A DNA stretch of 64,000 nt from Methanomassiliicoccales archaeon (lineage in GTDB: Archaea; Thermoplasmatota; Thermoplasmata; RBG-16-68-12; SOIM01). The stretch lies in assembly GCA_030593885.1 (NCBI GenBank), contig JAUVGH010000005.1, forward strand, positions 4,387 through 68,386. The letters run 5' to 3'. The position numbers were made by a program, and so were the translations under genes. Positions 31,722-63,371 of the stretch are shown piece by piece. Under the pieces are notes generated by a model. It was not told the origin of the DNA. It did not search any database and saw nothing but the letters and a program-made list of their open reading frames with translations. Position 1 is the first letter of the stretch, and each line of letters begins with the position of its first letter.

Positions 31722-34673
31722 TTATGACCTATCCGTGCTATCCTCGAGGCGACCCAGTTCCTCCTTGACCTCATCAACCTTCCCGTGCAGTTCCATCCCT
31801 ACGAATATGTTCAAGGCTCTTTTCAGGTGCTCTTCGGCCCTTTTGCCGTCACCCTTCTCTCTCCACATACGCCCGAACTCGTACAGGGTCACTGCCAGTT
31901 CTTTCTCATGCCCAATCTCCTCGAAGATCCTGATACTCTCATCGAAGCTATTGGCAGACTCCTCCCATCTCTCCTTCTCACGGTGGATCTTGCCGCAGAG
32001 TCTGCTTGACGTCCCGATGTTCTCCTTGAGGCCGATTTCCACCGCCAATTCGGATGCCTTCTTGCTGAATCCCATCGACTTCTCCAGGTTGCCCATTTTG
32101 AAATGAAGCTCCGCGATGCCGTTGAGGGCGTAGGACAAACCTGCTGGGTCGTCAATCGACTCGTGCATCTTCAGGCATTTCTCGTAGTGTTCCAAAGCTT
32201 GATGATACTCTCCCCTGAGTCCGAGTGTCACGCCCAGATTGCCGTGGGCACCCGCAATGGATTGTTGACTGCCGACCCTCTCGAAGATCTCTAGGCCCAT
32301 CTCGTTGTGGTCCAGCCCCTTGTCATAGTCTCCCATCTCAGAGTATGCGATGCCGATGTTGATGAGCTGAGCAGCAACGGCCGGTAATGCTCCCATACTC
32401 TCCGAGACCTTCATGGTCTCCGAAAACAGCTCAACTGCCTTCGCAAACTCTCCCCTAGTAGTATACACCACGCCGAGGTTGCCGGTGTAGGATGAAGCGA
32501 GGTTCCGGTCATCGGTCTTCCTCGCCGCCTCAAGAGCCTCCGTGAAGTATTCGAGAGCCTCGTCGCATCTCCCGGTATGGAAGCACAAAATGCCGATGTT
32601 GCTGAGGGATCCGGCAAAGCCCTTCATGTCACCAATCTTCCGTCCTATCCCCTTGCCCCTTTCAAAGCATTCGAGGGCTCCGTCGTAGTCCGCTCTCTCC
32701 ATAAGCACAAGTCCGATGACATTGAGTATGTTCGCCTCCTCCTCTGACTCCTCGCCCTCGACCAAGCGCAAAGCACGGTTGCAGACTTCGATGGATTCGT
32801 CATAGTCTCCACTCATCTTCAGCGCCCTGCCGAGCAACGCTCCGACTCGCGCCTTTCCCTTCGTCTCGTGTGCGAGTTCCATCGCAGCCCTGAGGCACTC
32901 AACGCTCTTGTCATGCTCACCGGTCAGCAGGTGGATTTCTCCCACATTCTCGAGGATTTCGACCTTCTTCTCCTTGTCAGACTCGAATTTGAGCGCCTTG
33001 GTATAGAATCTTATAGCTTCCTCATTCGAAAACTCCTTCTTCGCCCTCTCCGCCGCCTTCATGAGGTAGTGCAGAGCCTTGTCCTTGTCTCTGCAGCGAC
33101 TGTAGTGGAATGCCAGGTCCTCTATCACTTCTTCAGGGTCGTCCTTGTGCTGCTCCTCCATCGAGCCCGCGACTATCGAGTGGTACTCCATTCTGAGTTC
33201 TGGCGGTATCTGTTCGTACAGGACTTCCTTGATCTTGGAGTGGTCGAATCTGAACTCGCCATTCTGGGTATGAACGAGGCTGTGCCTCTGCTCCAACGTC
33301 CTCAAGTGTTCCAGCAACTGGACCCTTTCGAGTCCGGTGGCGGAAGCGAGAATGCTCGAAGTGAATTCCTCTCCAATGACGCACGCGTAGTCGAGGATTT
33401 CCTTCAACTCTCCTCCTACCCGATTGAGTCTGCGAGTGATGAGGTCGAAGATCTTGGACGGGATGTGCATCGTCTCCGGATCCTCGGATATCCATACTCC
33501 CTCGTGACTCCTGATCAGTTCTTCCTCGGCTAGTAGCTTGATCAGCTCTATCAGGAACAGCGGGTTTCCCTCTGCTTCCTCATAGACTCTCTTCATGAAC
33601 TTGTCGCTGAAGTCTGTCTCCCCGAGCATGGAGGATAGGAAGTCAGATGCGCTCTCCTGAGGCAGTCTCTCCAGCTCGATTCTCTCGCACAGGTCCTCCC
33701 GGCTCATCATCTGCATGGTCTCGATCAGAGGGTGTGTCTTGCCTTCCCTCGCCACGATGTCCTCGGGTCTGTAAGTGCCGATGAGAAGAAGACTGCACTT
33801 CCTCGTGGTTCTCGCCGTGTAGTGCATCAGTGCCAGGGAAGAGGGATCCGCCCAGTGGAGGTCCTCGATGCATAGCAGGGTTGGCGCGGTCTCCGCCTGT
33901 CGAGTAAGGCCCAAGGAGACATTCTCGAACAGGAGATTCCTTCGCGCCGCCGGGTCCTGCAGTCCGAAGTAGACTCCATCGTACTTACCCGACGCGACGA
34001 GCGGTCGGAGTGTGTCCTCGATTCCCCGCACGCTATCCTCGTCTCCGTCCCATTGACGCAGGACATCTCCGTGGTTCTTCTGCACCTTCACCAGGATGTC
34101 TCTCATGTCGTTAATGAGGAATTCGTTCTCTCGTCCTGTGAGGATTACAACGAGATTCGTGTCCTTTCCGCTCTCAACGAGAATTCTGTGGTTCTCGTAT
34201 CCCAGACTGTTCAGCATTCCTTCTCTTTCCTCTCCGCTCAACATCGACAGAGAATCCTTGACGAAATCTCCGACGGTTGTGAGCATGGAAGCGAACAGGT
34301 CTGGATCGAGTTCTGTCTCCTTCCGCAGAACTTCCTTGACCAACAAGCCTGTATTCGTCACTAGGTAGACTGCTTCCACTCTTGGTGCTTCCTCTGCGAA
34401 AAGTGATTCCATTCCTCCTGATCTCAATGCTTCCAAGAAGGGCATGTAGGGCGTGAGGGATTCGTACAGACTGTTTCCACTCAATATCTTAAAACTTTCC
34501 GATTCTGCTATGTTCTTGATCTCTTCCAACAGTCTCGTCTTTCCTATTCCTGCTTCTCCTGACATGAATAGGGTGGTTCCACGTCCCTGTGAGGCATTGC
34601 TCAGGTGCTCACGAAGCTCTTTGAGTTCATTCTCCCGACCTATCATTTCGGGCTGAAAGTCGAGCTGTGCCAT
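31722..34673 (-). CDS. AAA_16/STAND-type ATPase with a Roadblock/LC7-like insertion and C-terminal TPR repeats
   Basis: - Walker A is GEAGIGKTRL and Walker B is LLCIEDLHWADPSS.
- Between them lies a segment of about 100 aa, VEAVYLVTNTGLLVKE...LFASMLTTVGDFVKDSLSML...HRILVESGKDTNLVVILTGRE, with a Roadblock/MglB-like pattern.
- The C-terminal half has many TPR-like repeats.
- ATG 34673 is preceded by GGAGGG, so the ORF-track start at 34748 is probably spurious. Confidence 0.8.
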   Translation of the reverse strand: MAQLDFQPEMIGRENELKELREHLSNASQGRGTTLFMSGEAGIGKTRLLEEIKNIAESESFKILSGNSLYESLTPYMPFLEALRSGGMESLFAEEAPRVEAVYLVTNTGLLVKEVLRKETELDPDLFASMLTTVGDFVKDSLSMLSGEEREGMLNSLGYENHRILVESGKDTNLVVILTGRENEFLINDMRDILVKVQKNHGDVLRQWDGDEDSVRGIEDTLRPLVASGKYDGVYFGLQDPAARRNLLFENVSLGLTRQAETAPTLLCIEDLHWADPSSLALMHYTARTTRKCSLLLIGTYRPEDIVAREGKTHPLIETMQMMSREDLCERIELERLPQESASDFLSSMLGETDFSDKFMKRVYEEAEGNPLFLIELIKLLAEEELIRSHEGVWISEDPETMHIPSKIFDLITRRLNRVGGELKEILDYACVIGEEFTSSILASATGLERVQLLEHLRTLEQRHSLVHTQNGEFRFDHSKIKEVLYEQIPPELRMEYHSIVAGSMEEQHKDDPEEVIEDLAFHYSRCRDKDKALHYLMKAAERAKKEFSNEEAIRFYTKALKFESDKEKKVEILENVGEIHLLTGEHDKSVECLRAAMELAHETKGKARVGALLGRALKMSGDYDESIEVCNRALRLVEGEESEEEANILNVIGLVLMERADYDGALECFERGKGIGRKIGDMKGFAGSLSNIGILCFHTGRCDEALEYFTEALEAARKTDDRNLASSYTGNLGVVYTTRGEFAKAVELFSETMKVSESMGALPAVAAQLINIGIAYSEMGDYDKGLDHNEMGLEIFERVGSQQSIAGAHGNLGVTLGLRGEYHQALEHYEKCLKMHESIDDPAGLSYALNGIAELHFKMGNLEKSMGFSKKASELAVEIGLKENIGTSSRLCGKIHREKERWEESANSFDESIRIFEEIGHEKELAVTLYEFGRMWREKGDGKRAEEHLKRALNIFVGMELHGKVDEVKEELGRLEDSTDRS

Positions 34674-34704
34674 ACACCCTCCACAATCTCCATCATATGT
34701 CTTC

Positions 34705-34712
34705 TTATATAA
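34705..34712 (-). promoter_or_regulatory. TATA-box-like element (TTATATAA) upstream of the ATPase-TPR gene
   Basis: TTATATAA lies about 32 nt upstream of ATG 34673, with GGAGGG in between. Confidence 0.4.
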
Positions 34713-34912
34713 TTTGCTCTTTCCTGACTTTCTCCAGCTCCCTCCCAAGCTTCAGCTCCTCATAGATCTCCATGGCCTTGTCGAATTGCCCCTTCGCCTA
34801 GTCAGAATCGCCATTGGCCTTCCACATCAACCTGAACTCGGTGATAGCCCATCCGGGTGAAAGAATGACATTCAGCCCCCTTATCCTCGTGAATAGGTAG
34901 GAACGGTAAGTT
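34705..34912 (-). pseudogene. Relic of the C-terminal end of another ATPase-TPR paralog
   Basis: My minus-strand translation is ...GWAITEFRLMWKANGDSD*AKGQFDKAMEIYEELKLGRELEKVRKEQII*. It aligns with the C-termini of both intact paralogs (YEFGRMWREKGDGKRAEEHLKRALNIFVGM... and HEAGLMWKMKGDPETARNYLVKALEIFRKL...). It carries an in-frame TAG at 34798..34800, and nothing remains upstream of about 34912. Confidence 0.7.
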
Positions 34913-34962: not shown

Positions 34963-35247
34963 GGCCCAAAGATGCCATCGGGCCGAAGATGGTTGGAAGT
35001 CGTAAGGTGCCAGAGGTGGAGTTAGAAAAGCCTACAAGAATGCATCCGAAGCAAGAGAGAACGAGCAAGTCTGTCGGTACAGGTCCAGTGGCCTACACTC
35101 TCAGTGGAGGAGGGAATTCTGGAATGCATGCCTAAAACATTCAGGATTTTCCTTTCTCTCGCAAAACGAGCACAGGAAGCTCAATAGATGTGGGTGGATT
35201 GGCATAGGTATTCTACCCTAGAGGTCATTGAACGACGGGTCCATCCT
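34963..35247 (+). pseudogene. Composite relic: a fragment of the Cys-rich gene fused to the 3' end of the HTH gene (copy B of repeats A1+A2)
   Basis: 34963..35091 matches 29686..29814, and 35085..35247 matches 31441..31603. The two halves join at a shared CCAGTGG. The 74-aa ORF 34911..35135 contains GPKMVGSRKVPE..LEKP.RMHP, as in the intact Cys-rich protein. Confidence 0.8.
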
Positions 35248-35318
35248 GCCCATTGTGGAATGTTGTACGTTGCCAGAATGGCTTCATTGAATCTAATGGG
35301 AAGCCAAATACAAGGGAG

Positions 35319-37727
35319 CTAGTTCTGCAGTACCCACGTCACGTCTGACGGTACCCAAATCCAATACGCCTGGAATGGTTCCATGACGGAAGAGTCTGAC
35401 ATGTGCTCAAGATGGTAAGGCTCCAGGTCAGAAATGCCTTCAACCTCATACTCCGTAATCCCTGACAAGGCATCACCCACAAGCCTGGCATACGGTGAAC
35501 AATAGCCAATGAAGTTCCATCCAGTGATCAAGTTGTAGGTAATTGAAGTGGGAACATCACCCACGGCGATGATCCTGTCATTCACAGTCATATCAATCCA
35601 GTAACCTCTGCCAAACTCCAACTCCTGGAAATCCTGATACGGCTTGTCTTTGGAGATTGATTTCCACGGGTCTAATGCATCGGTCGGATCGAAGTAATGA
35701 ATGTTGTTGAAACTTCCCCATATCTGGCTGAGATGCACTGGGTCATTGTTGATTACGGGCAGGGCCAATGATTGAACGCCCGATGCTAATCCTACGTTGA
35801 TCTTTGCCACCACCCCGCTCACCGCCCAATTCAAGTGATGGTCTGCAACATAAAGCCGGTAATAGAAATCATCAGGGTTGTTGGAGCCTGCCCCAGTATG
35901 GTCGTAACAAGATATGGGAAGGTCATCCAATGTCCATTCCTCTAACACCGAATAAGGACCTAGGTACTGATTCGAGTACTGCAAAGTATAGAGCCATACG
36001 TCTGTGGATGTTGAGTTGTCAAAGCAGATTGAGTTGTAGTCGGGTAGAGCAGATATGGATCTGAAATCCGGTGGATTAGGAGCAACGATGTCTTCATCGG
36101 ACATGTCATTGGTCAATTCCAACACCACACAGGAATCTTGATTCATGTTTCCGGCCTCATCAAAGGCGTATACACAGTACTCGTACGTGCCCACATCTGG
36201 GAAAGGCGGAGGAGGCATTTGTGGACTGTAATCCTTCACGACTTCGTCCATCTCGTCAAACGATCCATCCGAGGCATACAAGGGATAACCTGGGAAGTTA
36301 CCTCGGCCAATCGTGTAGACGGCTTCAGCAATCATTCGATCATCCGAGACATCTGCCCAGATCTGGAAGTCTATCGGTTCATCTTTGTGGAATCTGACAT
36401 GATCCAAGCCATTGATCTTCGGAAAAGATTTAGGCAACGAGGAATCGATTGTGAAATGCTCTGAAATCACACAGGTGACCATCTGAGCGGGATTCCAAGC
36501 GCAAATCTCGATTCTTGCTTCGGTCGTATTTGTGGATGGAACAGACCAATTGACAGACATTGATGTCAGTACGTCGCCCCATCCCGAGAACGGCTGGGAG
36601 ACGCCGAGGGAGGCGACAACCCAAGGACCGCTGTCATTCAAAGAATAGTTCACCAAGAACTGAAGCTGGTCATTCCTGGCGTTGTCGTCGTGCGCAAGCC
36701 ACTTCAATGTTTCTGTAGTACCTCCTGCCAAAGCCTCTCCTGCCAAAGGCCGGAGTATCGTGATTGAGGGTGGATTAAGAGAGGGTCTGGGCCAGGAAAG
36801 GTCCGTCACAAAGTCAACTAGGTTATCGTTCGTGTCGTCCGCGTATACTGGGTAAGTTCCAGTCCTGTGCATAGCAAAGCCAGATGAGGGTGCATTGGCG
36901 TCGGTCATGATTGTGTTGTCCGGTTCAAAGTAGTGGCAACCGCCGACGGTTGCGTTCCATTCTACGCGATCGACTATTATGTCGCTGCCATCGAACGCTG
37001 GCCCTGTGTTATTCCAAACCAGCTTCAGCTCGTCGCCACAACCATCAAGGTCGATATCTTTGAGACTCGCGTAGAAATAGGCCGTGGCATTGGACGTCCC
37101 CGAAAGCGTTTGGATGGGGCCGTTGAGCGAGCCGTCGTTCTTCTCCAGGTAGAACCCGGACATGTCAAAGAACGGGTCCCGGGTATAGATGAACACGTAG
37201 TCTGTAAGTCCGTCAATAGGCTCAGGAACAATCCAACTTATTTTCGGGTACAAAGGCGGCTGAACTGCAGAGAGATTGAGGTCTTCATAATAGACAATGG
37301 TGGTCATCCATAGCTGAGTCTCCACAAACACACCAGCGTCGAAGAGAGTATCACCGTCTGGATCAAGATCGATGTTCGTGAAATTGCCCAAAGCGTACAT
37401 TATGGGTTCGTCGATGTCTCCTCCTTCCTTTATCCAAGGCGTATTTGGGTTTCCAGGAGCTGTCACCCAGTTCCCTGCCGTATCCAAGTCATACCATGTC
37501 TCGCTTGCGGAATCAAATGTGTAGTTATCTCCGTATTCGACACCATCTATCCATGATGTGAGCAGTTCACCCACACCGTATCGGGTCCCGGTCTCATCAA
37601 GAGCATGCCCCCAAGAATTATGAGGAACCGGTATGGCCCCCATTACGTTCACGGTTATGGGAGCTATGCCACTGAGAACCAGCACCCCCACCAACGCACC
37701 TGCCCAAACGACTGCCCACTTCTTCAT
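35319..37727 (-). CDS. Large secreted or cell-surface protein of unknown function
   Basis: 802-aa ORF with an N-terminal signal or anchor (MKKWAVVWAGALVGVLVLSGIAP). The sequence is beta-rich and rich in Asp, Asn and Trp, typical of archaeal surface proteins. Confidence 0.7.
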   Translation of the reverse strand: MKKWAVVWAGALVGVLVLSGIAPITVNVMGAIPVPHNSWGHALDETGTRYGVGELLTSWIDGVEYGDNYTFDSASETWYDLDTAGNWVTAPGNPNTPWIKEGGDIDEPIMYALGNFTNIDLDPDGDTLFDAGVFVETQLWMTTIVYYEDLNLSAVQPPLYPKISWIVPEPIDGLTDYVFIYTRDPFFDMSGFYLEKNDGSLNGPIQTLSGTSNATAYFYASLKDIDLDGCGDELKLVWNNTGPAFDGSDIIVDRVEWNATVGGCHYFEPDNTIMTDANAPSSGFAMHRTGTYPVYADDTNDNLVDFVTDLSWPRPSLNPPSITILRPLAGEALAGGTTETLKWLAHDDNARNDQLQFLVNYSLNDSGPWVVASLGVSQPFSGWGDVLTSMSVNWSVPSTNTTEARIEICAWNPAQMVTCVISEHFTIDSSLPKSFPKINGLDHVRFHKDEPIDFQIWADVSDDRMIAEAVYTIGRGNFPGYPLYASDGSFDEMDEVVKDYSPQMPPPPFPDVGTYEYCVYAFDEAGNMNQDSCVVLELTNDMSDEDIVAPNPPDFRSISALPDYNSICFDNSTSTDVWLYTLQYSNQYLGPYSVLEEWTLDDLPISCYDHTGAGSNNPDDFYYRLYVADHHLNWAVSGVVAKINVGLASGVQSLALPVINNDPVHLSQIWGSFNNIHYFDPTDALDPWKSISKDKPYQDFQELEFGRGYWIDMTVNDRIIAVGDVPTSITYNLITGWNFIGYCSPYARLVGDALSGITEYEVEGISDLEPYHLEHMSDSSVMEPFQAYWIWVPSDVTWVLQN

Positions 37728-37873
37728 ACATTTCCTCCACGTTTTGACTTAGAGCGGTCAAGAATCCATAGCTTTTCCCCACTATAAATATCTTCTTCAG
37801 TTTAGAAGATTGGCCTTCCATCAGAGAGACTTTCTGGATACTCAACCTGGGCGTGGAAGATGTCCAGTCGAGC

Positions 37874-38104
37874 TCATGGCGCTTTCCCTTTCTCACAAAA
37901 ATACGGACTTCCGTTCACGCCTTTCAGATCATATATCCTGTACACGGGGCACTCCGGGCATCTGCATCCCTTCTTGTCCACCTTGGCTTCAGAGTTACCT
38001 CTGGCGCAGTACAGAAAAGGAAAAGGTGGGTTGGGAAGGCTCGGGCATGTTCCACAGAAGTCCATGCAATGGTTAAGGTTCTCGGGTGTGTCATCCACAG
38101 GCAA
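37874..38104 (-). CDS. Small Cys-rich protein, DUF2769-like
   Basis: CMDFCGTCPS...LYCARGNSEAKVDKKGCRCPECPVYRIYDL...YFCEKG resembles the duplicated C..C..CP / C.C..CPV pattern I associate with DUF2769. Confidence 0.5.
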   Translation of the reverse strand: MPVDDTPENLNHCMDFCGTCPSLPNPPFPFLYCARGNSEAKVDKKGCRCPECPVYRIYDLKGVNGSPYFCEKGKAP

Positions 38105-45940: not shown

Positions 45941-48202
45941 ATGAAGAAGCTGTGGAGGAGAAGTGCGGGTTCCGTACTGGTAGCGTGTCTAATGCTGAAC
46001 CTAACAGTTGTGACCGTCCTGTATCATGTTGTCGTTTCACCAGGGCATGACGATACGAACTCGTACGAGTTGCCTGGTTTCCCGGGGACGGGTTGGCTGG
46101 AACAGCCTGATCTGCCGGCAGAACTTGTGATACCAATTCCAAAGGAGCCGGATCCCAACAGGCCGGATCTGACCTTCGAGGAAGCTAGACAGTTATGGGA
46201 TGGCTTCATCGAGAGATCGCATCTATCCGGCCCCAACATCGATCCGACAAAGGTAGATTACTATACCAACATATCAGATTCCCTCAATCCTTACCCAAAT
46301 GAATGGGATCTCATCTCAGAGAATGGGTTCGTGGTTGTAAACCAAGGTAAGTGGGACACATTCGAAGATGCGTACTATCACTACTGGGTTCGTGACCTCC
46401 CGGTCATAATAACCACCGACACGATTCTGAATACATTCCATCTGCTTTTTGACCAATTCCTGCAAGAGGCAGAGAAGGAGACCTTTCGACCCTTGCTGGC
46501 CGAGATTTCAACTGCCCTGCTCCGGAAGGCTGATGATTTTCACGGCCGTGTCAAAGACCAGACATTGAAGGCCAACATGGAGGAGATTGTCGTGTTCTTT
46601 AGCGTCGCCTCTGAGCTTCTAGAAACAGGAGAGAGAATCCCGGACTATGTCCGAAGTGAAGTGAAGACCTATGTAAATAAGATACTGGAAGCGAAGGACG
46701 TTGAACAATACCCGGGTCAGGACTACACTCAGTACAAACCAAGGGGCCATTATGCAGGCGATCCGCTTCTGGAAACCTACTTCAGGGCCATGATGTGGTA
46801 TGGGCGCAAGTCTCTGGACATGCAAGTCAATGATGATGTGCTCCAAGCCTGTTTGATCTCTCTGGTGGTCCTGGCAAGTGAAAGGGCCCAGGTGAAATGG
46901 GCCACAATCTACGACATCACCAGCTATCTTGTGGGAAAATCTGACAGCTTGAATTTCGTGGACATACTCAAGGCAATGCACGCATCACTGGGCAAATGGG
47001 ACATAGACCTGTTGAAAACACCTTCACATGTGGAGAACGTCATGGAGGAGCTCAAGAAGGACGAATACTACAGACCGCGAATCCTCTCGGACGTCGTATA
47101 CAAGAATCCCAGCGAGATGTATAACGAGATGGAGTTCCCAAAGATATTCCAGTTCATGGGCCAGAGATACGTTCCAGATTCTGAGATAATGCAGAGCGTC
47201 ATGTATGACCGAGTGCCTTTATCTGAGGGAGGCAGAAGAGGTCTGCCATGGGCACTTGACGTCATGGCGGCTTTGGGCTCACCGCAGGCAGTTCACCATC
47301 TGGAGACTGAGCTAACGAAGTATGGCTACGAGGAGCAATTGAAGGACGCCTGGGCATCCGCCGAGACAAAGAGCGAAGGATACTGGGGGCAGTCAGCCTA
47401 TTTCGGTCTATTGCGATCATACAAAGAACTGATCTCGGGGAAGGAGGACGAGAGGTATCCCAGCTTCATGAGGACCGAGGCGTGGGCGGACGAGAAGCTG
47501 AACACGGCATTGGGATCATGGACGGAGCTCAGACATGACACGATTCTGTATGCCAAACAACCCTACTCAATGGGAATAACATGCGGAACGCCAGACGGAA
47601 TCGTTGAGCCGTATCCGACGTTCTATGAGAGAATGGAAGCGCTTTCGATAATGATGAGGGACATAATCGTCCGTGGCTTCGATCTAGACAAAACATTTGT
47701 CACCAGATTCATTGAGGTCTTCGAGGACTTTGCTGATATCAACTACAACCTTGCCTCGATCGCGAAGCATGAGCTCGAAGGGGAGAGATTGACGCCGGAT
47801 GAGAGTGCATTTGTGCGAGAGATCTTCGTAGAACAAAGAGGCGGAGGTTGTGGTGGTCCGGTGACTCGTGATGGATGGCTTCCGCGATTGATTGAGAAGG
47901 CCAAGATAAGTGAGAAGACAAAAGACTCAAGAATCGTTGCCGATGTTGCCACTGATCCTGGAAGTCCATTGACTGGAGATCCTCCGAGGATCCTTCATGT
48001 GGCCACTGGTTTCGTGCGCACAGTGATAGTGGCATATGAAATGCCCAATGGGGACCACTCCTTCTTCGTCGGACCGGTGTATTCCTTCTATGAATTCCCA
48101 ATGGGTAAGTTCAGCAGACTGAACGATGACGATTGGAAGAAACTTCTTGACTCGGATGACTGTCCTCCAGATCCGTTCTGGACTTCTTCGTTCATGGCCT
48201 GA
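45941..48202 (+). CDS. Secreted or anchored DUF3160-like protein
   Basis: N-terminal signal anchor (SVLVACLMLNLTVVTVLY). The YKPRGHY motif and the size of about 750 aa fit my recollection of DUF3160. The family call is tentative. Confidence 0.6.
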   Translation: MKKLWRRSAGSVLVACLMLNLTVVTVLYHVVVSPGHDDTNSYELPGFPGTGWLEQPDLPAELVIPIPKEPDPNRPDLTFEEARQLWDGFIERSHLSGPNIDPTKVDYYTNISDSLNPYPNEWDLISENGFVVVNQGKWDTFEDAYYHYWVRDLPVIITTDTILNTFHLLFDQFLQEAEKETFRPLLAEISTALLRKADDFHGRVKDQTLKANMEEIVVFFSVASELLETGERIPDYVRSEVKTYVNKILEAKDVEQYPGQDYTQYKPRGHYAGDPLLETYFRAMMWYGRKSLDMQVNDDVLQACLISLVVLASERAQVKWATIYDITSYLVGKSDSLNFVDILKAMHASLGKWDIDLLKTPSHVENVMEELKKDEYYRPRILSDVVYKNPSEMYNEMEFPKIFQFMGQRYVPDSEIMQSVMYDRVPLSEGGRRGLPWALDVMAALGSPQAVHHLETELTKYGYEEQLKDAWASAETKSEGYWGQSAYFGLLRSYKELISGKEDERYPSFMRTEAWADEKLNTALGSWTELRHDTILYAKQPYSMGITCGTPDGIVEPYPTFYERMEALSIMMRDIIVRGFDLDKTFVTRFIEVFEDFADINYNLASIAKHELEGERLTPDESAFVREIFVEQRGGGCGGPVTRDGWLPRLIEKAKISEKTKDSRIVADVATDPGSPLTGDPPRILHVATGFVRTVIVAYEMPNGDHSFFVGPVYSFYEFPMGKFSRLNDDDWKKLLDSDDCPPDPFWTSSFMA

Positions 48203-48336
48203 AGGGATGGCCTAGAGCAGAATTCGCGCCTCAACAAGATGGTTATCCTGAACGAAGTAGGGTACAGAGAAGTGTAGACTAGTCAATGAGCAGGATCTGG
48301 AGAAGACGAACTCGCAACTCCTGGAATAAACTATTT

Positions 48337-51300
48337 ATGACCGTATTCGGTTTTAGAGATGGAGGGGAAGCCCTGAAGTTAGATTTCCAGCCCGAGATGG
48401 TCGGTCGAGAGGAGGAGCTAAGAGAGCTTCAGGACCGTCTGAATGAAGCCTCGGACGGGCAAGGAAGGACTGTTCTCATCGCTGGAGAAGCTGGTGTCGG
48501 AAAGACAAGACTTGTGAACGAGCTGAAGGACATTGCAGCGGCCAAAGGATTTGCGGTTATGTCTGGAAACAGCATGTACGAATCATTGACGCCCTACTTG
48601 CCAATCTTGGATGCGTTGAGGTCGGGCGGTATGGAAACCCTTTTCGCGGAGGAGACTCCGAGGATCGAAGGTCTGTATCTGATAACGCACCAGGGCTTGC
48701 TGGCAAAGGAGGTCCTGAGAGAAGAGACCGGTCTGGATCCGGACCTGTTTGCCTCCATGCTTTCGACCGTTGGGGATTTTGTGAGAGATTCGCTGTCCAT
48801 GATGACTGGAGAGGAGAGAGAAGGAGCGCTGAACAGTCTCGGATATGAGAACTATACAATCATCATCAGCAGCGGCATAAGTGCCAATCTTGTGGCAATA
48901 CTCTCCGGCAGAGAGAACGAATTCCTGCTCAATGATCTGAGCGGGGTTCTATCAGAAGTCCACAGAGACTTCGGAAGCGTCCTCAAGGATTGGGATGGCG
49001 ACACAGAGAAGCTAGAGGGTCTCGAGAACCCGATGAAACCGTTGATAGCATCAGGGAAGTACGATGGAGCATACTACGGAATGGACAACCCCGAAGGGAG
49101 AAGGAATCTGCTTTTCGAGAACGTCTCGTTGGGGCTGATGCGGCATGCGAAATCCACGCCAACACTCTTGTGTATTGAGGACTTGCACTGGGCGGATCCT
49201 TCCTCACTGGCTATGATGCACTACGTTGTAAGGAACACTAGAGAGTGCAGTCTGCTGATGTTAGGCACCTTTCGGCCTGAGGACATTGGAGACACAGGAG
49301 GCGAACCTCATCCTCTGGTGGAAACGATGCAGATGATGAGCAGGGAGGACCTATATGAGAAGATGGAGCTGGCCAGGTTGCCCAAGGACAACTTGAACGA
49401 GCTCCTGTCAGCCTTGCTCGGAGAAGTTGACTTCGATGATAAGTTCAAAGATCTAATCTATCATGAGACCGAGGGGAATCCCCTCTTCATGCTCGAACTG
49501 GTGAAACTGCTGGTCGACGAGGGTGCGGTTTCTCCTCAAGAAGGGACATGGACGTTGGTCAAAGATCTTGGGACTGTCGATGTTCCCTCCAAGATAAACG
49601 ACGTGATTTTGAGAAGACTCGACCGCGTGAAAAGCGAACAACGGAAGATACTGGATTACGCTTCAGTTATTGGGGAGACCTTCACATCGGTTGTGCTTTC
49701 CGAAATCCTGAAATTGGACAGGGTTGAATTGCTGGAGCAACTAAGGCCCCTTCAAAAGACACATAGACTAATTCATCCTTTCAATGGGTGCTTCAGGTTT
49801 GACCACGCCAAGGTAAAGGAAGTGCTGTACGAAGAGACCCCGGAGGAGCTCAGAACGGAATACCATGCGATGATTGCGGATGCTATTGAGAGGCAGAATG
49901 AGGAAAATCTGGATGATGTGATTGGGAATTTGGCATATCACTATTATCTATGTGGGAACAAGAAGAAGGCACTCCAATATCTCACCAAGGCAGCGGATAA
50001 GGCGAAGAAGGAATACTCGAATGAGGAGGCGACAAGATTCTATAGACAGGCCCTAGACTGCGAGGAGAATCCAGACAAGAGAATGGAGATTCTCGAGAAT
50101 CTTGGAGACATCTATGGCTTGACCGGAGAGTATGAAAGAAGCATAGAATCCTATGAGAATTCGCTGCAACTGGCCGAAGAGGCAAGAGAGATTGTGGAAA
50201 TCAAATCGAAACTGGGAGGAATCTACGCAAAGATTGGGGAGTACGACCGGTCTATGGCAGTTTCTATCAAGGCCTTGGAGCTGATAAAGGGTGAAGACTG
50301 CGTTGAAGAGGCCCATGTCCTCAATAGGATTGGCAAAGTGCATTGGTTCAAAGATGAGTATGATGAAGCACTTCGGTATTTCGAGAACAGCCTGAGGATA
50401 GAGGAGAGAATTGATGATCCCGAGGGGATTGCGAAATCACTCATCAACATAGGTACCACGCATTTCCGCAGGGGGGACTTCGATAAAGCCCTTGAACATC
50501 TGGAGAGAAGCCTCAAAATAAGCAAGAAGATTGATGCCAAGGGATGCATTGCATCCTGCCTTTTGAACATAGGTAATGTCCGCTCTATTAAGGGGAAGTA
50601 CGACGAAGCCATTGAATATTACAGCAAGAGCTTGATGATATCCCAAGGAATCGGAGACCTATTAACCGTAGCCATAGTCCTCAACAACATTGGTATCATT
50701 CACTATGATAGAGGAGAATATGCTCTGGGACTTGAGTCCTATGAGAAGAGTAGGAAGATCGCGGAGAAGATTGACGATCAACAAGGCCTGTCGCGGACCT
50801 TAGGGAACATTGGGAGCATGTACGTAGACATGGATCAGTACGAGAAAGCTCGAGACTACTGCGAAAGGAGTTTGAGAATGTGCAAAGAAATCGGCACCCA
50901 GGGAATGGACCCGGTGAATCTCACCAACATGGGTGGCTTGAGTCTCGGATTGGGAGAATACGACAAGGCCCTGGAATACTGCGAGAGAAGTCTAGAAATA
51001 TCTGAGAGAATCGGAAGCAAGCAGAGTACGGCGGTCACGTATTTCATGCTGGCGGAAACCTATCTTCTCAAGGGGGACTTGGATAGCGCATCGCACTTCT
51101 GCGAAGCAGCAACTGATTTGTCCAACGAGATCGGTCTTAAGGTAATGGTTGGATGCACAAAGAGGATTCTCGGCATGATTTACCGAGAGCAAGGGAAGTG
51201 GGGGAAGTCTATTGAGAGCTTTGACGATTGTATCAGGATTCTCAGGGAGCTTGACGTGAAAAAGGAGTTGGGCAGAGCCTACCATGAGGCCGGTTTGATG

Positions 51301-51426
51301 TGGAAAATGAAAGGCGATCCAGAAACCGCACGAAACTATCTGGTCAAGGCCCTTGAGATCTTCCGGAAGCTGAATCTAGAGATGAGAGTGGAGAAGTCAA
51401 AGGAAGTACTGGATGAGCTTGCCTGA
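48337..51426 (+). CDS. AAA_16/STAND-type ATPase with a Roadblock/LC7-like insertion and C-terminal TPR repeats (paralog of 31722..34673)
   Basis: It is collinear with the other paralog, including LDFQPEMVGREEEL, GEAGVGKTRL, the insert IEGLYLITHQGLLAKE...LFASMLSTVGDFVRDSLSMM...YTIIISSGISANLVAILSGRE, LLCIEDLHWADPSS, and then TPR repeats. The start is uncertain. ATG 48337 is the nearest in-frame ATG upstream of the conserved N-terminus. Confidence 0.8.
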   Translation: MTVFGFRDGGEALKLDFQPEMVGREEELRELQDRLNEASDGQGRTVLIAGEAGVGKTRLVNELKDIAAAKGFAVMSGNSMYESLTPYLPILDALRSGGMETLFAEETPRIEGLYLITHQGLLAKEVLREETGLDPDLFASMLSTVGDFVRDSLSMMTGEEREGALNSLGYENYTIIISSGISANLVAILSGRENEFLLNDLSGVLSEVHRDFGSVLKDWDGDTEKLEGLENPMKPLIASGKYDGAYYGMDNPEGRRNLLFENVSLGLMRHAKSTPTLLCIEDLHWADPSSLAMMHYVVRNTRECSLLMLGTFRPEDIGDTGGEPHPLVETMQMMSREDLYEKMELARLPKDNLNELLSALLGEVDFDDKFKDLIYHETEGNPLFMLELVKLLVDEGAVSPQEGTWTLVKDLGTVDVPSKINDVILRRLDRVKSEQRKILDYASVIGETFTSVVLSEILKLDRVELLEQLRPLQKTHRLIHPFNGCFRFDHAKVKEVLYEETPEELRTEYHAMIADAIERQNEENLDDVIGNLAYHYYLCGNKKKALQYLTKAADKAKKEYSNEEATRFYRQALDCEENPDKRMEILENLGDIYGLTGEYERSIESYENSLQLAEEAREIVEIKSKLGGIYAKIGEYDRSMAVSIKALELIKGEDCVEEAHVLNRIGKVHWFKDEYDEALRYFENSLRIEERIDDPEGIAKSLINIGTTHFRRGDFDKALEHLERSLKISKKIDAKGCIASCLLNIGNVRSIKGKYDEAIEYYSKSLMISQGIGDLLTVAIVLNNIGIIHYDRGEYALGLESYEKSRKIAEKIDDQQGLSRTLGNIGSMYVDMDQYEKARDYCERSLRMCKEIGTQGMDPVNLTNMGGLSLGLGEYDKALEYCERSLEISERIGSKQSTAVTYFMLAETYLLKGDLDSASHFCEAATDLSNEIGLKVMVGCTKRILGMIYREQGKWGKSIESFDDCIRILRELDVKKELGRAYHEAGLMWKMKGDPETARNYLVKALEIFRKLNLEMRVEKSKEVLDELA

Positions 51427-51577: not shown

Positions 51578-54217
51578 ATGACGAGGGCGTTGCTGTTCAC
51601 AGGTGTGCTGCTTTTGAGCGCATTCTCCCTCCAAGCGTTGTCTTCACAGGCCGAACTACAGAACTCGATTGTCTTGAACGAAGTAGTCTACAATCCCCAA
51701 GGGCCTGAAGTTGAAGGTGAATGGATAGAGCTCTTCAACGGCGGAGACGACGTCGACATACAGGACTGGACCATAACGGACCAAGACAACTGGATTTTCC
51801 AGTTCCCCTCCCTTGCCGTTCCCCGGGAATGCTATATTGTTCTGCACATTGGTCCAGGCATTCCGGACAGCGACTTCGATGACTGCGTCGCACACCTGTA
51901 CTCGAACAGAACGACCCCTCGTCTCAACAATGCTGGCGATGATCTTCTCCTCCAGGATGGTCTTGGCGCTGCCATCGATTTTTTCAGCTACGGCTCCGGC
52001 AGTGGCCTCGACCATCCACCCCCCGGGATAGAGTGGGACTCGGCCGCTGAGACAGTCCCTGAAGGCTATTCGGCTTCGGTCTTTCCCAACGGATATGACG
52101 TCGACACACGCGAAAGCTGGGTCCAGTCCAACCCGAGCCCGGGAGAGACCAATGGAGAGCTGTCAGCGGTGCCAACGGACGTTAAGATCGCTGAAATCTA
52201 CTACAATGCTTACCGTGATGATGAGTACGTCGCGATAGAGAACTTCTCACCTGGAGAACAGGACATTAGCGGATGGACACTTACCGACCTGGAAGGGTAC
52301 GTGGCGTTCCCTGCTGGAACCTTGATCCCACCCCAGAACACCTTATATGTCACGAGGAACTCGACTTCTTTCTTCGAGGATACGCTCTTCCAGGCCGATT
52401 TCCAGTATGAGAATGGCGACGCTGCATCGATGGTCGTCATTGGCAACATACCCCGCCTGAACAACGATGGTGATGAGGTGATCCTGTTGGATGACCACGG
52501 GAGGGTAGTGGACGTCTTCATCTATGGGCATTCCAACTATGATGGAGCCGGATGGACGGGCGACGCTGCGGAAGACCTGTGGAAGGGGAAGATAGCCAAG
52601 AGAAGCTCAGAAACGAACTCGTCCGCGGACTGGATGGGTCTGAGAGAATACGGCATCGGTCAATCGGATTACGATGCGGACCTGCTGACCTTCGATGGTT
52701 CAATCACGGTTTTCTCGTCTCCTGATACGAGCTTTGAGGTCATCACCCAAGAGATAAGGATGGCCGAAGAGAGAATTGACATCAACCTGTACGAGTTCAC
52801 CAGCCATGAGATGGCCGACACTCTTGTCTCGGCCCTCGGAAGAGGGGTGTCTGTCAGAGTCCTGGTCGAGGGGTCGCCGGTCGGAGGCATCAAGACGCCT
52901 GAACTGGAGGTTCTCAACCGACTCTCAGATTCTGGAGCGGAGATACGACTTCTACGAGCAGACGAGTCAAACGACATTTACGCCAGATACACCTTCAACC
53001 ACGGGAAATACGCCTTGATAGACGGGGATGTGGTAGTTGTCTGCTCCGAGAACTGGGGGAACTCAGGTGTTCCTGAGAACAATCGAACGGGCAACAGAGG
53101 ATGGGGGATCCTGGTGAAGGCCAGCGAGGTCCATGATTACTACAGGAAGATCTTCGAAAGCGATTGGAACCCTCTGGCAGGCGACAGTGTCGAGTTTGAG
53201 AGTGTGAAAAAGGAAGTGGAACCGTTTGAACCGAACGAGAACCTGTTCACATCCTATGAGTATGCAGGTGGCTTTCCGATTCGTTCAATTCAAGGGAGCT
53301 TCAGTGTGAGACCGGTCATTTCGCCCGACACATCCCTGGACGACTCGACCATAATCGAGATGATAAGATCGGCCGAGGACGAGATACTGCTGGAACAGTT
53401 CTACATCCGTCCCCATTGGGGAAAGGACACCGAGACCATGAACCCATATCTCGATGAGATCATCAAGGCAGCCCGGAAGGGTGTAAGAGTGCAGGTTCTC
53501 CTGGACTCAAGCTGGTACAACGTGGGCGATGACGATCCCTACAATAATGACGATGTCGTGGCCGACCTCAACGAACTCGGAGATTCGGAGGGTCTTCAGA
53601 TAGAGGCGAAACTGATCGATTCCAATTCCCACGGGTTCCTGAAGCTGCATAACAAAGGTATGATAACAGACGGGAATACAGTGCTAATATCAAGCATCAA
53701 CTGGAACAAGAACTCGATAGCGTCCAACAGGGAGATCGGGATCATAGTGTACGACGTGGAAGTGGCATCCTTCTACCGGGAACTGTTCTTCTACGACTGG
53801 CGTGATGATGTGACCAAACCGATCGCGGACGCTGGAGAGGATAGGGTCGTGGTTCAACATGAGGCGTTTCAACTCGACGCAAGCGGCTCGTTCGACGATG
53901 TGGGCATAGTGAACTACAGCTGGGACCTGAACAATGACGGAGTGTACGAGGCATTTGGCCCCAACGCATCAGTGAGTTTTGGCACAGTGGGCAACTTCAC
54001 GATGACCTTGAAGGTGGAGGATATCTGGGGCAACATCGGGACCGACTCCTGCTTGATTAGCGTCATATCAGATGATGAGGCGGCCCAGACGCCAACCCAG
54101 AACGTATGGGGAGGCATAGCCCTGATGACGGTCGTTTTCATTGGTATCTTGGTGCCGGCAACGTTCTTTCTAGCCAGATACAGGAAGCAAAAAGATATAA
54201 GAAAGCCCGATGAATAA
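51578..54217 (+). CDS. Surface-anchored protein: two lamin-tail (LTD) domains, two phospholipase D/Nuc-type HKD domains, a PKD domain and a C-terminal TM anchor
   Basis: - Signal peptide.
- LTD pattern twice: IVLNEVVYNPQG...GEWIELFNGGDDVDIQDWTITD and VKIAEIYYNA...EYVAIENFSPGEQDISGWTLTD.
- HKD motifs: FNHGKYALIDG and KLHNKGMITDG...SSINWN.
- PKD-like block: DASGSFDDVGIVNYSWDLNNDG.
- C-terminal helix: IALMTVVFIGILVPATFFL. Confidence 0.75.
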   Translation: MTRALLFTGVLLLSAFSLQALSSQAELQNSIVLNEVVYNPQGPEVEGEWIELFNGGDDVDIQDWTITDQDNWIFQFPSLAVPRECYIVLHIGPGIPDSDFDDCVAHLYSNRTTPRLNNAGDDLLLQDGLGAAIDFFSYGSGSGLDHPPPGIEWDSAAETVPEGYSASVFPNGYDVDTRESWVQSNPSPGETNGELSAVPTDVKIAEIYYNAYRDDEYVAIENFSPGEQDISGWTLTDLEGYVAFPAGTLIPPQNTLYVTRNSTSFFEDTLFQADFQYENGDAASMVVIGNIPRLNNDGDEVILLDDHGRVVDVFIYGHSNYDGAGWTGDAAEDLWKGKIAKRSSETNSSADWMGLREYGIGQSDYDADLLTFDGSITVFSSPDTSFEVITQEIRMAEERIDINLYEFTSHEMADTLVSALGRGVSVRVLVEGSPVGGIKTPELEVLNRLSDSGAEIRLLRADESNDIYARYTFNHGKYALIDGDVVVVCSENWGNSGVPENNRTGNRGWGILVKASEVHDYYRKIFESDWNPLAGDSVEFESVKKEVEPFEPNENLFTSYEYAGGFPIRSIQGSFSVRPVISPDTSLDDSTIIEMIRSAEDEILLEQFYIRPHWGKDTETMNPYLDEIIKAARKGVRVQVLLDSSWYNVGDDDPYNNDDVVADLNELGDSEGLQIEAKLIDSNSHGFLKLHNKGMITDGNTVLISSINWNKNSIASNREIGIIVYDVEVASFYRELFFYDWRDDVTKPIADAGEDRVVVQHEAFQLDASGSFDDVGIVNYSWDLNNDGVYEAFGPNASVSFGTVGNFTMTLKVEDIWGNIGTDSCLISVISDDEAAQTPTQNVWGGIALMTVVFIGILVPATFFLARYRKQKDIRKPDE

Positions 54218-62146: not shown

Positions 62147-62716
62147 CTAGTTGTCCACAAGCTTCGCCCTGAGGTTCTGTCTTGCCAGAAGTCTTGCGAT
62201 GTCTTCGAATGCCGGCTCCACGTTCGAGCCTGTCTTTGCACTGGTCAGTTTATGTGTGGACTCGTAATTCTCGGACAGCTTCTCGATGTCGCTCTCGGTG
62301 ATAACGTACTCACCCTCGAGATCTGCCTTGTTGGCCAGGAGCTCGACAGGGATCTTGCCGGTGACGTTGAACGCGTTCATTATCCAGTCCTCGAGGCTCT
62401 CGAACGTCTCTCCAGCTGTCAGATCGCAAACCGCGATCAGTCCTTGAGCGCCGAAGAAATAGGCCTCCCTAAGCAGGCTCCTGAACTCCTTGGCACCCAT
62501 GATGTCGTAGATTATCATGGCGATCTCGTACTCGATCCCCAGCTCCGGGAATGGGACTATCTCGTTCTTCTTGGTGACCTTTGCTCCGAGAGTTGCCAGA
62601 TACTTGTCCTCAAAGGTGTCATAAACGAATCTTCTGACAAGACTGGTCTTCCCCACGGAGTTGTCTCCGACCATGCAGACCTTGGCCTTTATCTTCTCAC
62701 GTCTCAGGGGCGCCAC
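62147..62716 (-). CDS. Ras/Rab-like small GTPase
   Basis: G1 is GDNSVGKTS, the switch I Thr is in YLATLG, G3 is DIMG, G4 is NKAD and G5 is SAK. 189 aa. Confidence 0.8.
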   Translation of the reverse strand: MAPLRREKIKAKVCMVGDNSVGKTSLVRRFVYDTFEDKYLATLGAKVTKKNEIVPFPELGIEYEIAMIIYDIMGAKEFRSLLREAYFFGAQGLIAVCDLTAGETFESLEDWIMNAFNVTGKIPVELLANKADLEGEYVITESDIEKLSENYESTHKLTSAKTGSNVEPAFEDIARLLARQNLRAKLVDN

Positions 62717-63020: not shown

Positions 63021-63371
63021 TCACTCGGAAATCTCTTCAAGGTACAACTTGCCCTCGTTCGTGATCCCGAGCTTCCTTATCACGCTTGTAGCGTATCCGT
63101 TGAGCACTTCGGACTCAACGCTGGTGACCATTACGAGGTCGCGATAGAGCATTGACGCGGTGTAACATCTGAGATCCGCCAGTTCGAGGTTGATCTCGTT
63201 CGATATGGCCCTCTCCGAGGCTTCCGGAACAGTCTCCAGATAGCTGAGCATCTTCCTTTCTTTCTCTTCATCCCGCAGGTCGCAAAAGTGAGTTATCCCG
63301 CTGATGTCCTCGAGCCTCTTCATCCGCTTCTTGATCTCTACCAGCTCATCATACAACTTTGCAGTGTCCAT
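63021..63371 (-). CDS. Small coiled-coil plus winged-helix protein
   Basis: N-terminal helix, then MLSYLETVPEASERAISNEINLELADLRCYTASMLYRDLV...LGITNEGKLYLEE, which is a wHTH pattern. A TATA-like ATAAATAT and GGAGG lie upstream. Confidence 0.55.
   Translation of the reverse strand: MDTAKLYDELVEIKKRMKRLEDISGITHFCDLRDEEKERKMLSYLETVPEASERAISNEINLELADLRCYTASMLYRDLVMVTSVESEVLNGYATSVIRKLGITNEGKLYLEEISE

Follow-up and report, generated by a model that had tools for sequence, protein, structure and literature searches.

A domain of the longin/Roadblock superfold inserted between the Walker motifs of AAA_16-TPR ATPases in Thermoplasmatota, and its partial genomic association with Ras-like GTPases

Domains of the longin/Roadblock fold form the dimeric platforms that bind and regulate small GTPases in MglB, Ragulator, TRAPP, Mon1-Ccz1 and FLCN-type complexes. 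Roadblock and longin modules are usually free subunits, and longins have been described in eukaryotes and Asgard archaea, either as free domains or as N-terminal modules. STAND ATPases usually signal through terminal effector domains. In the ATPases RuvBL1 and RuvBL2 (Rvb1/Rvb2, Pontin/Reptin), domain II, which is an OB-fold, binds partners and moves with the nucleotide state. Here we describe two paralogous AAA_16-TPR ATPases encoded in a 64,000-nucleotide stretch of the genome of a Methanomassiliicoccales archaeon (contig JAUVGH010000005.1, positions 4,387 to 68,386; hereafter the window, to which all coordinates refer unless a locus is named). The nucleotide-binding core of both proteins is interrupted by a separate domain, for which the predicted structure well supports a longin/Roadblock superfold, and in part of the relatives the respective gene lies next to a gene for a Ras-like GTPase. 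The two proteins and their nucleotide-binding motifs are located as follows.

31722..34673, minus strand: paralogue 1, an AAA_16 (STAND) ATPase with an inserted domain and a C-terminal TPR array, 983 aa (open reading frame list, translation, Pfam)
34536..34559, minus strand: Walker A motif (P-loop) GEAGIGKT of paralogue 1; G39, G42, G44 and K45 are invariant in alignment A1
33846..33878, minus strand: Walker B motif LLCIEDLHWAD of paralogue 1, in core strand E265-270 of the structural model; D271 and D276 are invariant in the alignment
48286..51426, plus strand: paralogue 2, with the same architecture as paralogue 1, 1046 aa from the first ATG (open reading frame list, translation, Pfam)
48484..48507, plus strand: Walker A motif GEAGVGKT of paralogue 2
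49165..49197, plus strand: Walker B motif LLCIEDLHWAD of paralogue 2

The mechanically called open reading frame (ORF) of paralogue 1 (31722..34748, minus strand) starts from a TTG at 34748; given that homologues begin with MAQLDFQP or MPELDFQP, the ATG at 34673 is the likely start, and, because homologues begin just before LDFQP, the true start of paralogue 2 may also lie further downstream than the first ATG. Both proteins score well above the Pfam gathering threshold for AAA_16 (75.1 bits for paralogue 1 and 82.8 bits for paralogue 2; cut-off 32.6) and contain Walker A (GxxGxGKT) and Walker B (hhhhDD) motifs. The C-terminal repeat sensor array is recognized in both by TPR_12 (E 3e-56 and 5e-73, respectively) and by TPR_MalT (E 7e-22, 78.6 bits, and E 1e-22, 81.3 bits, both passing the 45-bit cut-off). 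Besides the insert, there is no separate effector domain at either end of the two proteins. Each of them is a STAND-type signalling ATPase, in which an AAA_16 nucleotide-binding domain is combined with a helical region and a long array of TPR sensor repeats. AAA_16 above threshold, Walker A, the hhhhDD-LHWAD type of Walker B and TPR_MalT-like C-terminal repeats are shared with the known AAA_16-TPR regulators (MalT-like, AfsR/SARP-type and adenylate-cyclase-linked), and homologues of the window proteins carry typical partner domains, among them Guanylate_cyc, BTAD and Trans_reg_C. The window proteins differ from these regulators in that they have no terminal effector and their nucleotide-binding domain is broken by an insertion of ~150 residues.

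In each window protein, 225 residues separate the lysine of Walker A from the acid of Walker B. Both Walker motifs could be located in 87 AAA_16 homologues, of which 62 have no such insertion; the median spacing is 225 in the insert-bearing group (n=25) and 111.5 in the insert-free group, mostly 78-132. Judging from the latter, the normal spacing is about 80-130 residues, rather than the 60-90 assumed in a preliminary description of this locus. The excess of about 115-145 residues is real.

It might be argued that there is no separate domain here at all, i.e., that Walker B was mis-assigned or that the extra segment is an ordinary extended helical lid of AAA_16, given that a single continuous Pfam match crosses the region (residues 11-298 of paralogue 1 aligned with positions 3-167 of the 167-position profile, with the gap spanned). 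This match, however, is stretched over 288 residues in paralogue 1 and 282 in paralogue 2. Because the profile bridges the gap and the AlphaFold2 model, with a predicted local distance difference test score (pLDDT) of 90, places LLCIED in core strand E265-270, Walker B is not mis-assigned, the very possibility against which the preliminary description had cautioned. Furthermore, insert-free relatives align cleanly around the insert, the insert consists mainly of beta-sheet and two long helices, and the domain occurs on its own in other proteins. Spacing, alignment, model and recurrence of the domain elsewhere together refute this interpretation, to which we attach a negligible probability. The limits of the insertion and of the domain proper are the following.

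33969..34418, minus strand: whole insertion of paralogue 1 (residues 86-235), from alignment A1 with the insert-free P0048, P0049 and P0052 and from the AlphaFold2 model
34008..34382, minus strand: domain proper of paralogue 1 (residues 98-222), from AlphaFold2, Foldseek and the limits of the repeated unit in multi-copy proteins
48625..49074, plus strand: whole insertion of paralogue 2 (coordinates checked)
48661..49035, plus strand: domain proper of paralogue 2 (match of the profile of the 57-sequence alignment A3 to this ORF, E 7e-58)

The two insertions are 65% identical, and a scan of the window with the A3 profile finds these two copies of the domain and no further ones. The segments singled out in the preliminary description (34071-34382 on the minus strand and 48661..48975 on the plus strand) are indeed encoded there but are too short, the conserved unit continuing for another 21 residues, to residue 222, in paralogue 1 and to 49035 in paralogue 2. 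The domain interrupts the helical segment that links core strand 2 to the Walker B strand. In the model of paralogue 1, the core helix stops at residue 85 and the core is taken up again at helix 241-262. Conserved features of the insert include a nearly invariant Arg directly after strand 2 (R117 in paralogue 1) and an invariant W-x-G motif (WDGD), which follows the long C-terminal helix and, with short helices, forms the end of the domain.

The AlphaFold2 model of the N-terminal 387 residues of paralogue 1, which was built from a 102-sequence alignment, has a mean pLDDT of 90.1 and a predicted template modelling score of 0.85, with the AAA_16 core sheet modelled at pLDDT above 90. In this model, the P-loop core elements E33-38, H45-58, E62-67 and H77-85 (E, strand; H, helix) are followed by the insert, which comprises E98-106, E111-116, H124-144, E154-159, E162-168, E172-179, H184-206 and three short helices, after which H241-262 and the Walker B strand continue the core. 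When the insert is modelled alone from alignment A3 (pLDDT 79.7), the same elements are recovered (E13-21, E26-31, H39-60, E69-74, E77-83, E87-94, H99-121, H127-130 and H133-142). These models indicate an independent alpha/beta domain of ~125 residues within the nucleotide-binding core, not a helical lid or linker, as anticipated in the preliminary description, which had pointed to AlphaFold as the check.

The longin and Roadblock folds differ in the position of helices, with a helix at both the N- and the C-terminus in Roadblock, and no N-terminal helix but a second C-terminal helix in longins (PMC10933270). In the models of the insert, strand 1 is preceded only by a four-residue turn (H89-92), so that the N-terminal helix of the Roadblock arrangement, a-bb-a-bbb(-a) (a, helix; b, strand), is missing, and at least two helices follow strand 5. 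The predicted order of elements, taken as order only, is bb-a-bbb-a-a in the insert modelled alone, i.e., that of longins rather than that of canonical Roadblock domains, and not the alpha-beta-beta-alpha-beta-beta-beta-alpha pattern originally proposed.

Comparison of the insert-alone model with the PDB using Foldseek yielded, among the 50 matches listed, 38 with E <= 1e-3, each of which is a longin or a Roadblock structure. The longin group includes zeta-COP (5mc7, E 1.8e-5), AP-1 sigma (9ddt, E 1.2e-4), VAMP7 (2vx8, E 2.7e-4) and Sec22b (1ifq, E <= 1e-3, template modelling (TM) score 0.62/0.71, root-mean-square deviation (rmsd) 3.4), and Ykt6 (3bw6, TM 0.63/0.66) follows at E 1.5e-3. The Roadblock group includes MglC (7ct3, E 2.4e-4), a Streptomyces Roadblock protein (3kye, E 3.4e-4), MglB (3t12, E 4.1e-4), a Thorarchaeota Roadblock protein (7f8m, E 5.2e-4), dynein LC7 (3l7h, E 7.4e-4) and Roadblock proteins of Prometheoarchaeum, with TM-scores of 0.33-0.56. 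The insert is structurally similar to both groups, but the longin matches align more residues and have higher TM-scores. The Roadblock identity suggested in the preliminary description is therefore supported by the matches to MglB, MglC and LC7 and qualified by longin matches that are at least as good.

The same comparison bears on the proposal that the insert is a sensor of a small molecule or peptide that feeds into the ATPase site, i.e., a ligand-binding alpha/beta sandwich similar to the GAF, PAS or profilin-like folds. The bb-a-bbb-a core is common to profilin and ligand-binding folds (PMC10933270), the location beside the nucleotide site would suit allosteric control, and the invariant W and G might be pocket-lining residues. 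We nevertheless consider a sensor role unlikely: no GAF, PAS or profilin structure is present among the 50 Foldseek matches listed, and the protein already has a large sensor in the TPR array.

At the sequence level, the assignment to the longin/Roadblock superfold meets several points that weigh against it. The Pfam model Robl_LC7 (PF03259), against which the preliminary description had proposed a check, does not match either window insert even at E <= 10, and among the 57 members of alignment A3 there are only weak matches to Robl_LC7 in three (best E 4.6e-4) and to Sybindin (E 0.13) and Fuz_longin_1 (E 0.15) in one each; no longin profile match in the window inserts or in these 57 relatives is significant. 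In hhalign comparisons, the probability for A3 is below 4% with Myxococcus xanthus MglB (an approximate sequence, 95% identical to a real cluster), with human DYNLRB1 (also an approximate sequence) and with a profile of 20 MglB sequences (a narrow one, limited to close MglB of Myxococcota); in these comparisons, strands 1-2 alone are in register. The Foldseek TM-scores are moderate (0.33-0.63), and the case that sequence makes for homology with Roadblock or longin is marginal. Nothing significant came from a search of PDB sequences with the A3 profile, in which a Roadblock light chain had E 0.44 and AP-1 sigma E 0.8. The top match in that search, SlmA (E 0.015), was rejected since only helices were aligned. 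Searches of Pfam and NCBIfam with the insert alone identified no family apart from a sub-threshold match to CTD8 (E 0.008), a family that is uninformative on the fold and is also weakly matched by 9 of the 57 relatives in A3. Three homologues (P0001, P0014 and P0020) carry the automatic Joint Genome Institute (JGI) name 'predicted regulator of Ras-like GTPase activity (Roadblock/LC7/MglB family)', of the COG2018 type, which is also given to true MglB proteins; we take this naming only as a lead. Because the sequence-level evidence is weak, we do not file the insert under Robl_LC7. The fold is well supported as that of the longin/Roadblock superfold, and we describe the insert as a distinct family of this superfold that has no Pfam or NCBIfam model.

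With MglB and other Roadblock/LC7 proteins (MglA-MglB, the Ragulator LAMTOR proteins, actinobacterial conservon CvnB and the Asgard Roadblock proteins), the insert shares, by Foldseek, the bb-a-bbb alpha/beta sandwich core. A gene for a Ras-like GTPase adjoins many relatives, a likeness to mglA-mglB that is partial, there being no such adjacency in the window and little of it in the reciprocal test described below. The differences are that Roadblock domains usually form stand-alone proteins of ~100-160 aa, whereas here the domain is spliced into an ATPase core, and that the insert has no real N-terminal helix, has no Robl_LC7 match in the window proteins, and ends in the invariant W-x-G after the long C-terminal helix. 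To our knowledge, this motif is not found in Roadblock proteins. With longins (zeta-COP, AP sigma and Sec22b/Ykt6/VAMP7, as well as Mon1-Ccz1, TRAPP, FLCN-FNIP and GATOR1), the insert shares the bb-a-bbb-a-a order with helices on the C-terminal side only (PMC10933270), and it is to this group that its best Foldseek E values and TM-scores belong; it differs from them in the lack of a significant sequence-profile match and in its occurrence in Thermoplasmatota, within a STAND ATPase.

When the whole N-terminal model is compared, RuvBL1/2 are the top Foldseek matches (E 6e-8). These proteins similarly contain a folded domain of comparable size between Walker A and Walker B, but domain II is an OB-fold, not a longin/Roadblock domain, and RuvBL is a hexameric AAA+ protein, in contrast to the AAA_16/STAND core with a TPR sensor in the window proteins. 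Because the TM-scores reach only 0.33-0.40, at an rmsd of 13-16 A, we regard the likeness as an architectural analogy, not a relationship. By this analogy, one would expect a domain at the position of the insert to shift with the nucleotide state.

An exhaustive HMMER search with the 142-residue insert segment as the query identified, among cluster representatives at 50% clustering, 1,895 matches at E <= 1e-3 and 319 at E <= 1e-10, mostly from Thermoplasmatota; given the 1,895 matching representatives, the insert is not a chance segment. Architectures were counted in the best 149 of the 1,895. By a strict pattern, Walker A and Walker B flank the domain in 86 of these; 19 more are truncated but consistent with insertion in AAA_16, and ~17 others have the same size and position, so that ~80% of the best 149 are insertions in AAA_16. 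The remaining architectures in this set (~25) contain two or three copies of the domain and no AAA_16. They include giant proteins (P0128, P0145, P0146 and P0153), in which 2-3 copies, spaced ~500 residues apart, are accompanied by CARDB-like and DUF5915-like regions, and membrane proteins (P0193, P0209, P0215 and P0220), with two copies back to back. In the multi-copy proteins, the unit that recurs is the equivalent of residues 98-222 in paralogue 1. The domain is a mobile module, and its back-to-back arrangement in the P0193-type membrane proteins is suggestive of function as a dimer.

A scan of one genome per species with 14 closer sequences as the query produced 77 loci with 95 insert-bearing genes, nearly all from metagenome-assembled genomes of Thermoplasmata or Methanomassiliicoccales, with many paralogues per genome. 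Tandem arrays of 3-4 insert-bearing AAA_16-TPR genes are found in single Thermoplasmata genomes (L020:9671-20419, L024:3580-13058, L034:3433-12853 and L070:3-8580); such arrays, along with the high number of paralogues in each genome, have the pattern of a sensor family that is diversifying rapidly. Giant proteins of ~1,580-1,660 aa (L079:6001-10746, L022:929-5674 and L080:1248-6242) contain CARDB-like Ig regions, coiled coils and two copies of the domain, and their C-terminal region resembles DUF5915 (the C-terminal domain of the isoleucyl-tRNA synthetase type). The P0193 protein (L078:555-2237) has several predicted transmembrane segments, and its two back-to-back copies are located at the end. 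A 1.2-kb contig labelled Planctomycetota bacterium (L003, JAGLHQ010000234.1) encodes an insert 92% identical to that of the window and is probably a mis-binned Thermoplasmata fragment.

The preliminary description had also pointed to a Ras/Rab-like GTPase encoded in the window as a possible partner and had called for a survey of the architecture and of its co-occurrence with GTPase genes.

62147..62716, minus strand: Ras-family small GTPase, 189 aa (Pfam Ras, E 1.4e-30), the sole GTPase match in a six-frame scan of the window

This protein has the G3 motif DIMGA, without the catalytic Gln, and has no C-terminal extension. When related loci were searched with it as the query, GTPases 33-43% identical to it were found, most of which adjoin insert-bearing genes. 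In the 77 loci, 15 of the 95 insert-bearing genes lie directly beside a Ras-family gene (Pfam Ras, E 1e-28 to 1e-36); GTPases occupy 15 of 164 immediate flank positions compared with 8 of 523 other flank genes (binomial P 4.5e-8), counts that include some related loci but involve at least 10 distinct lineages. In a neighbour-joining tree, the genes with this neighbour fall into three separate clades. Within the clade that contains both window paralogues, the GTPase neighbour is present in all seven other lineages with readable flanks (L004, L005, L006, L010, L011, L012 and L013). The arrangement varies (upstream, downstream, divergent or convergent), and the genes are often co-directional, with ends that overlap or lie very close. 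On an independent JGI metagenome contig (L079), two AAA_16-TPR genes with the insert lie side by side with the genes for a two-copy giant protein and for a 283-aa Ras GTPase, a repetition of the layout of L022. In two loci, the gene for the giant two-copy protein lies between an insert-bearing AAA_16-TPR gene and the Ras GTPase. In a very small control, three loci of insert-free AAA_16 relatives, no GTPase was found nearby.

Most of the GTPases that adjoin insert-bearing genes possess a conserved C-terminal extension of ~100 residues (L012:8797-9678, L007:12543-13430, L005:12557-13471, L004:5499-6470, L072:12788-13588 and others) with the motif ...GALDAIIVDFC...LRQEI.RAG.DI..PTKEG...EYLAEAE.EF..., which has no match in Pfam or among PDB sequences. 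The residue that follows G3 DxxG is Ala in the window GTPase and Arg in most of the linked ones (L004-L013, L018); the GTPases of L072, L077 and L022 retain the catalytic Gln of Ras at this point. Directly upstream of the window GTPase, on the same strand, there is a 116-aa ORF (63021..63371) that matches no family and does not match the profile of the inserted domain.

Several observations weigh against a general partnership of the insert with these GTPases. Neither window paralogue adjoins a GTPase gene, the only one in the window lying at distances of 11 kb (paralogue 2) and 27 kb (paralogue 1), and this GTPase belongs to a different subgroup from those of the related loci; the six-frame scan revealed no further GTPases or GTPase remnants beside the paralogues, and, apart from synteny with the strain L002, no neighbours are conserved between the window and the 77 loci. 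No GTPase gene adjoins the remaining 80 of the 95 genes with the insert. In the reciprocal test, on 19 metagenome loci found through the GTPase C-terminal extension, an insert-bearing neighbour is present only in L085/L086, which are identical, and perhaps in the truncated L095; five of these loci, of 5.8-12 kb, hold no insert-bearing gene, and no recurrent family was detected among the neighbours in GTPase loci without the domain. The 5-kb contig that encodes the tandem-pair membrane protein P0193 contains no GTPase. Given the situation in the window, the 80 of 95 genes and the reciprocal test, the association is real but partial. The specific partner named in the preliminary description is a possible one for the window paralogues: it is the gene neighbourhoods of relatives that speak for a small GTPase, and the 189-aa protein itself is neither adjacent nor equipped with the extension.

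Another possibility is that the insert is a general module for protein-protein or self-association, for example one that dimerizes STAND protomers or docks some other partner and has no specific role with small GTPases, with the GTPase neighbours reflecting another part of the system or a single sub-lineage. In favour of this possibility, the adjacent GTPase is missing for most family members, the domain is missing from most loci of the linked GTPase family, the P0193-type tandem pair comes with no GTPase nearby, and GTPase regulation is not a function of every longin/Roadblock domain, exceptions being those of SNAREs and of the dynein light chain LC7 (PMC10933270). It does not readily explain the strong enrichment of GTPases at the directly adjacent position, in three clades and in two domain architectures, or the absence of a GTPase beside the three insert-free relatives. 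We regard a pure association module as a possible but doubtful account.

For the window proteins themselves, we propose that they could be STAND-gated platforms for a Ras-like GTPase, a proposal to which we give an even chance. Under this hypothesis, ligand binding by the TPR array and ATP-dependent oligomerization of the STAND core would reposition or pair the inserted domains, and a platform for the Ras-like GTPase would thereby be formed or hidden; the platform would act on the GTPase as GAP (GTPase-activating protein), GEF (guanine nucleotide exchange factor) or scaffold, or would take in a signal from it, such that the inserted domain would be the output (or input) module of the switch. 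GTPase binding, the direction of signalling and dimerization of the insert are features that we infer, and the nucleotide state may be coupled to the surface of the insert. It is conceivable, as pure speculation, that the nearly invariant Arg of the insert lends catalysis to the many linked GTPases that have Arg or Ala in place of the catalytic Gln. The wider proposal, that Thermoplasmatota, which are not Asgard archaea, possess a large longin-like family mainly inside STAND ATPases, with the role of a GAP, GEF or docking platform that is gated by ATP and ligand and acts on Ras-like GTPases, is put forward only tentatively.

The surroundings of the two genes differ between strains. In Thermoplasmata archaeon RS_5_45 (L002), a close strain of the window organism with 92-95% DNA identity, paralogue 2 (48286..51426) and the DUF3160 gene (45941..48202) are absent, and their flanks are contiguous there apart from ~130 bases; the segment 45757..51577 looks like a strain-variable island that carries one of the two paralogues. 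An 802-aa ORF (35319..37727, minus strand) just upstream of paralogue 1 has no match in Pfam, NCBIfam or PADLOC and is also absent from L002, in which ~1.3 kb of other sequence takes the place of window positions 34987..37874. Directly downstream of paralogue 2, 51578..54217 encodes an 879-aa protein with two Lamin Tail Domains, a pair of PLD-like phosphodiesterase domains and a PKD domain, which, judging from these domains, is probably a secreted or surface nuclease or phospholipase. The defence models of PADLOC gave generic TPR matches only.

Roadblock and longin modules as regulators of NTPases are an old concept, and automatic COG annotation already flags some fragments of the present family. 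The literature searched contains no account of a Roadblock or longin domain placed within AAA_16 or any other STAND ATPase, or of such a system in Thermoplasmata. At 50% clustering, the domain family numbers at least 1,895 representatives, for which neither Pfam nor NCBIfam offers a model, and, should the link to GTPases fail, a well-supported domain insertion in AAA_16 comparable to domain II of RuvBL would remain. If the proposed function is correct, a fold of GTPase regulators within a nucleotide-binding core would represent a new way to couple two molecular switches, with a testable model for the control of a Ras-like GTPase by ATP-driven oligomerization, and the resulting two-switch signalling cascade, from ATPase to GTPase, would be a link not previously described. 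The longin-type topology would then reach archaea other than Asgard, providing a prokaryotic precedent outside that group for longin-based regulation of GTPases, which would bear on the debated origin of the eukaryotic GTPase regulators.

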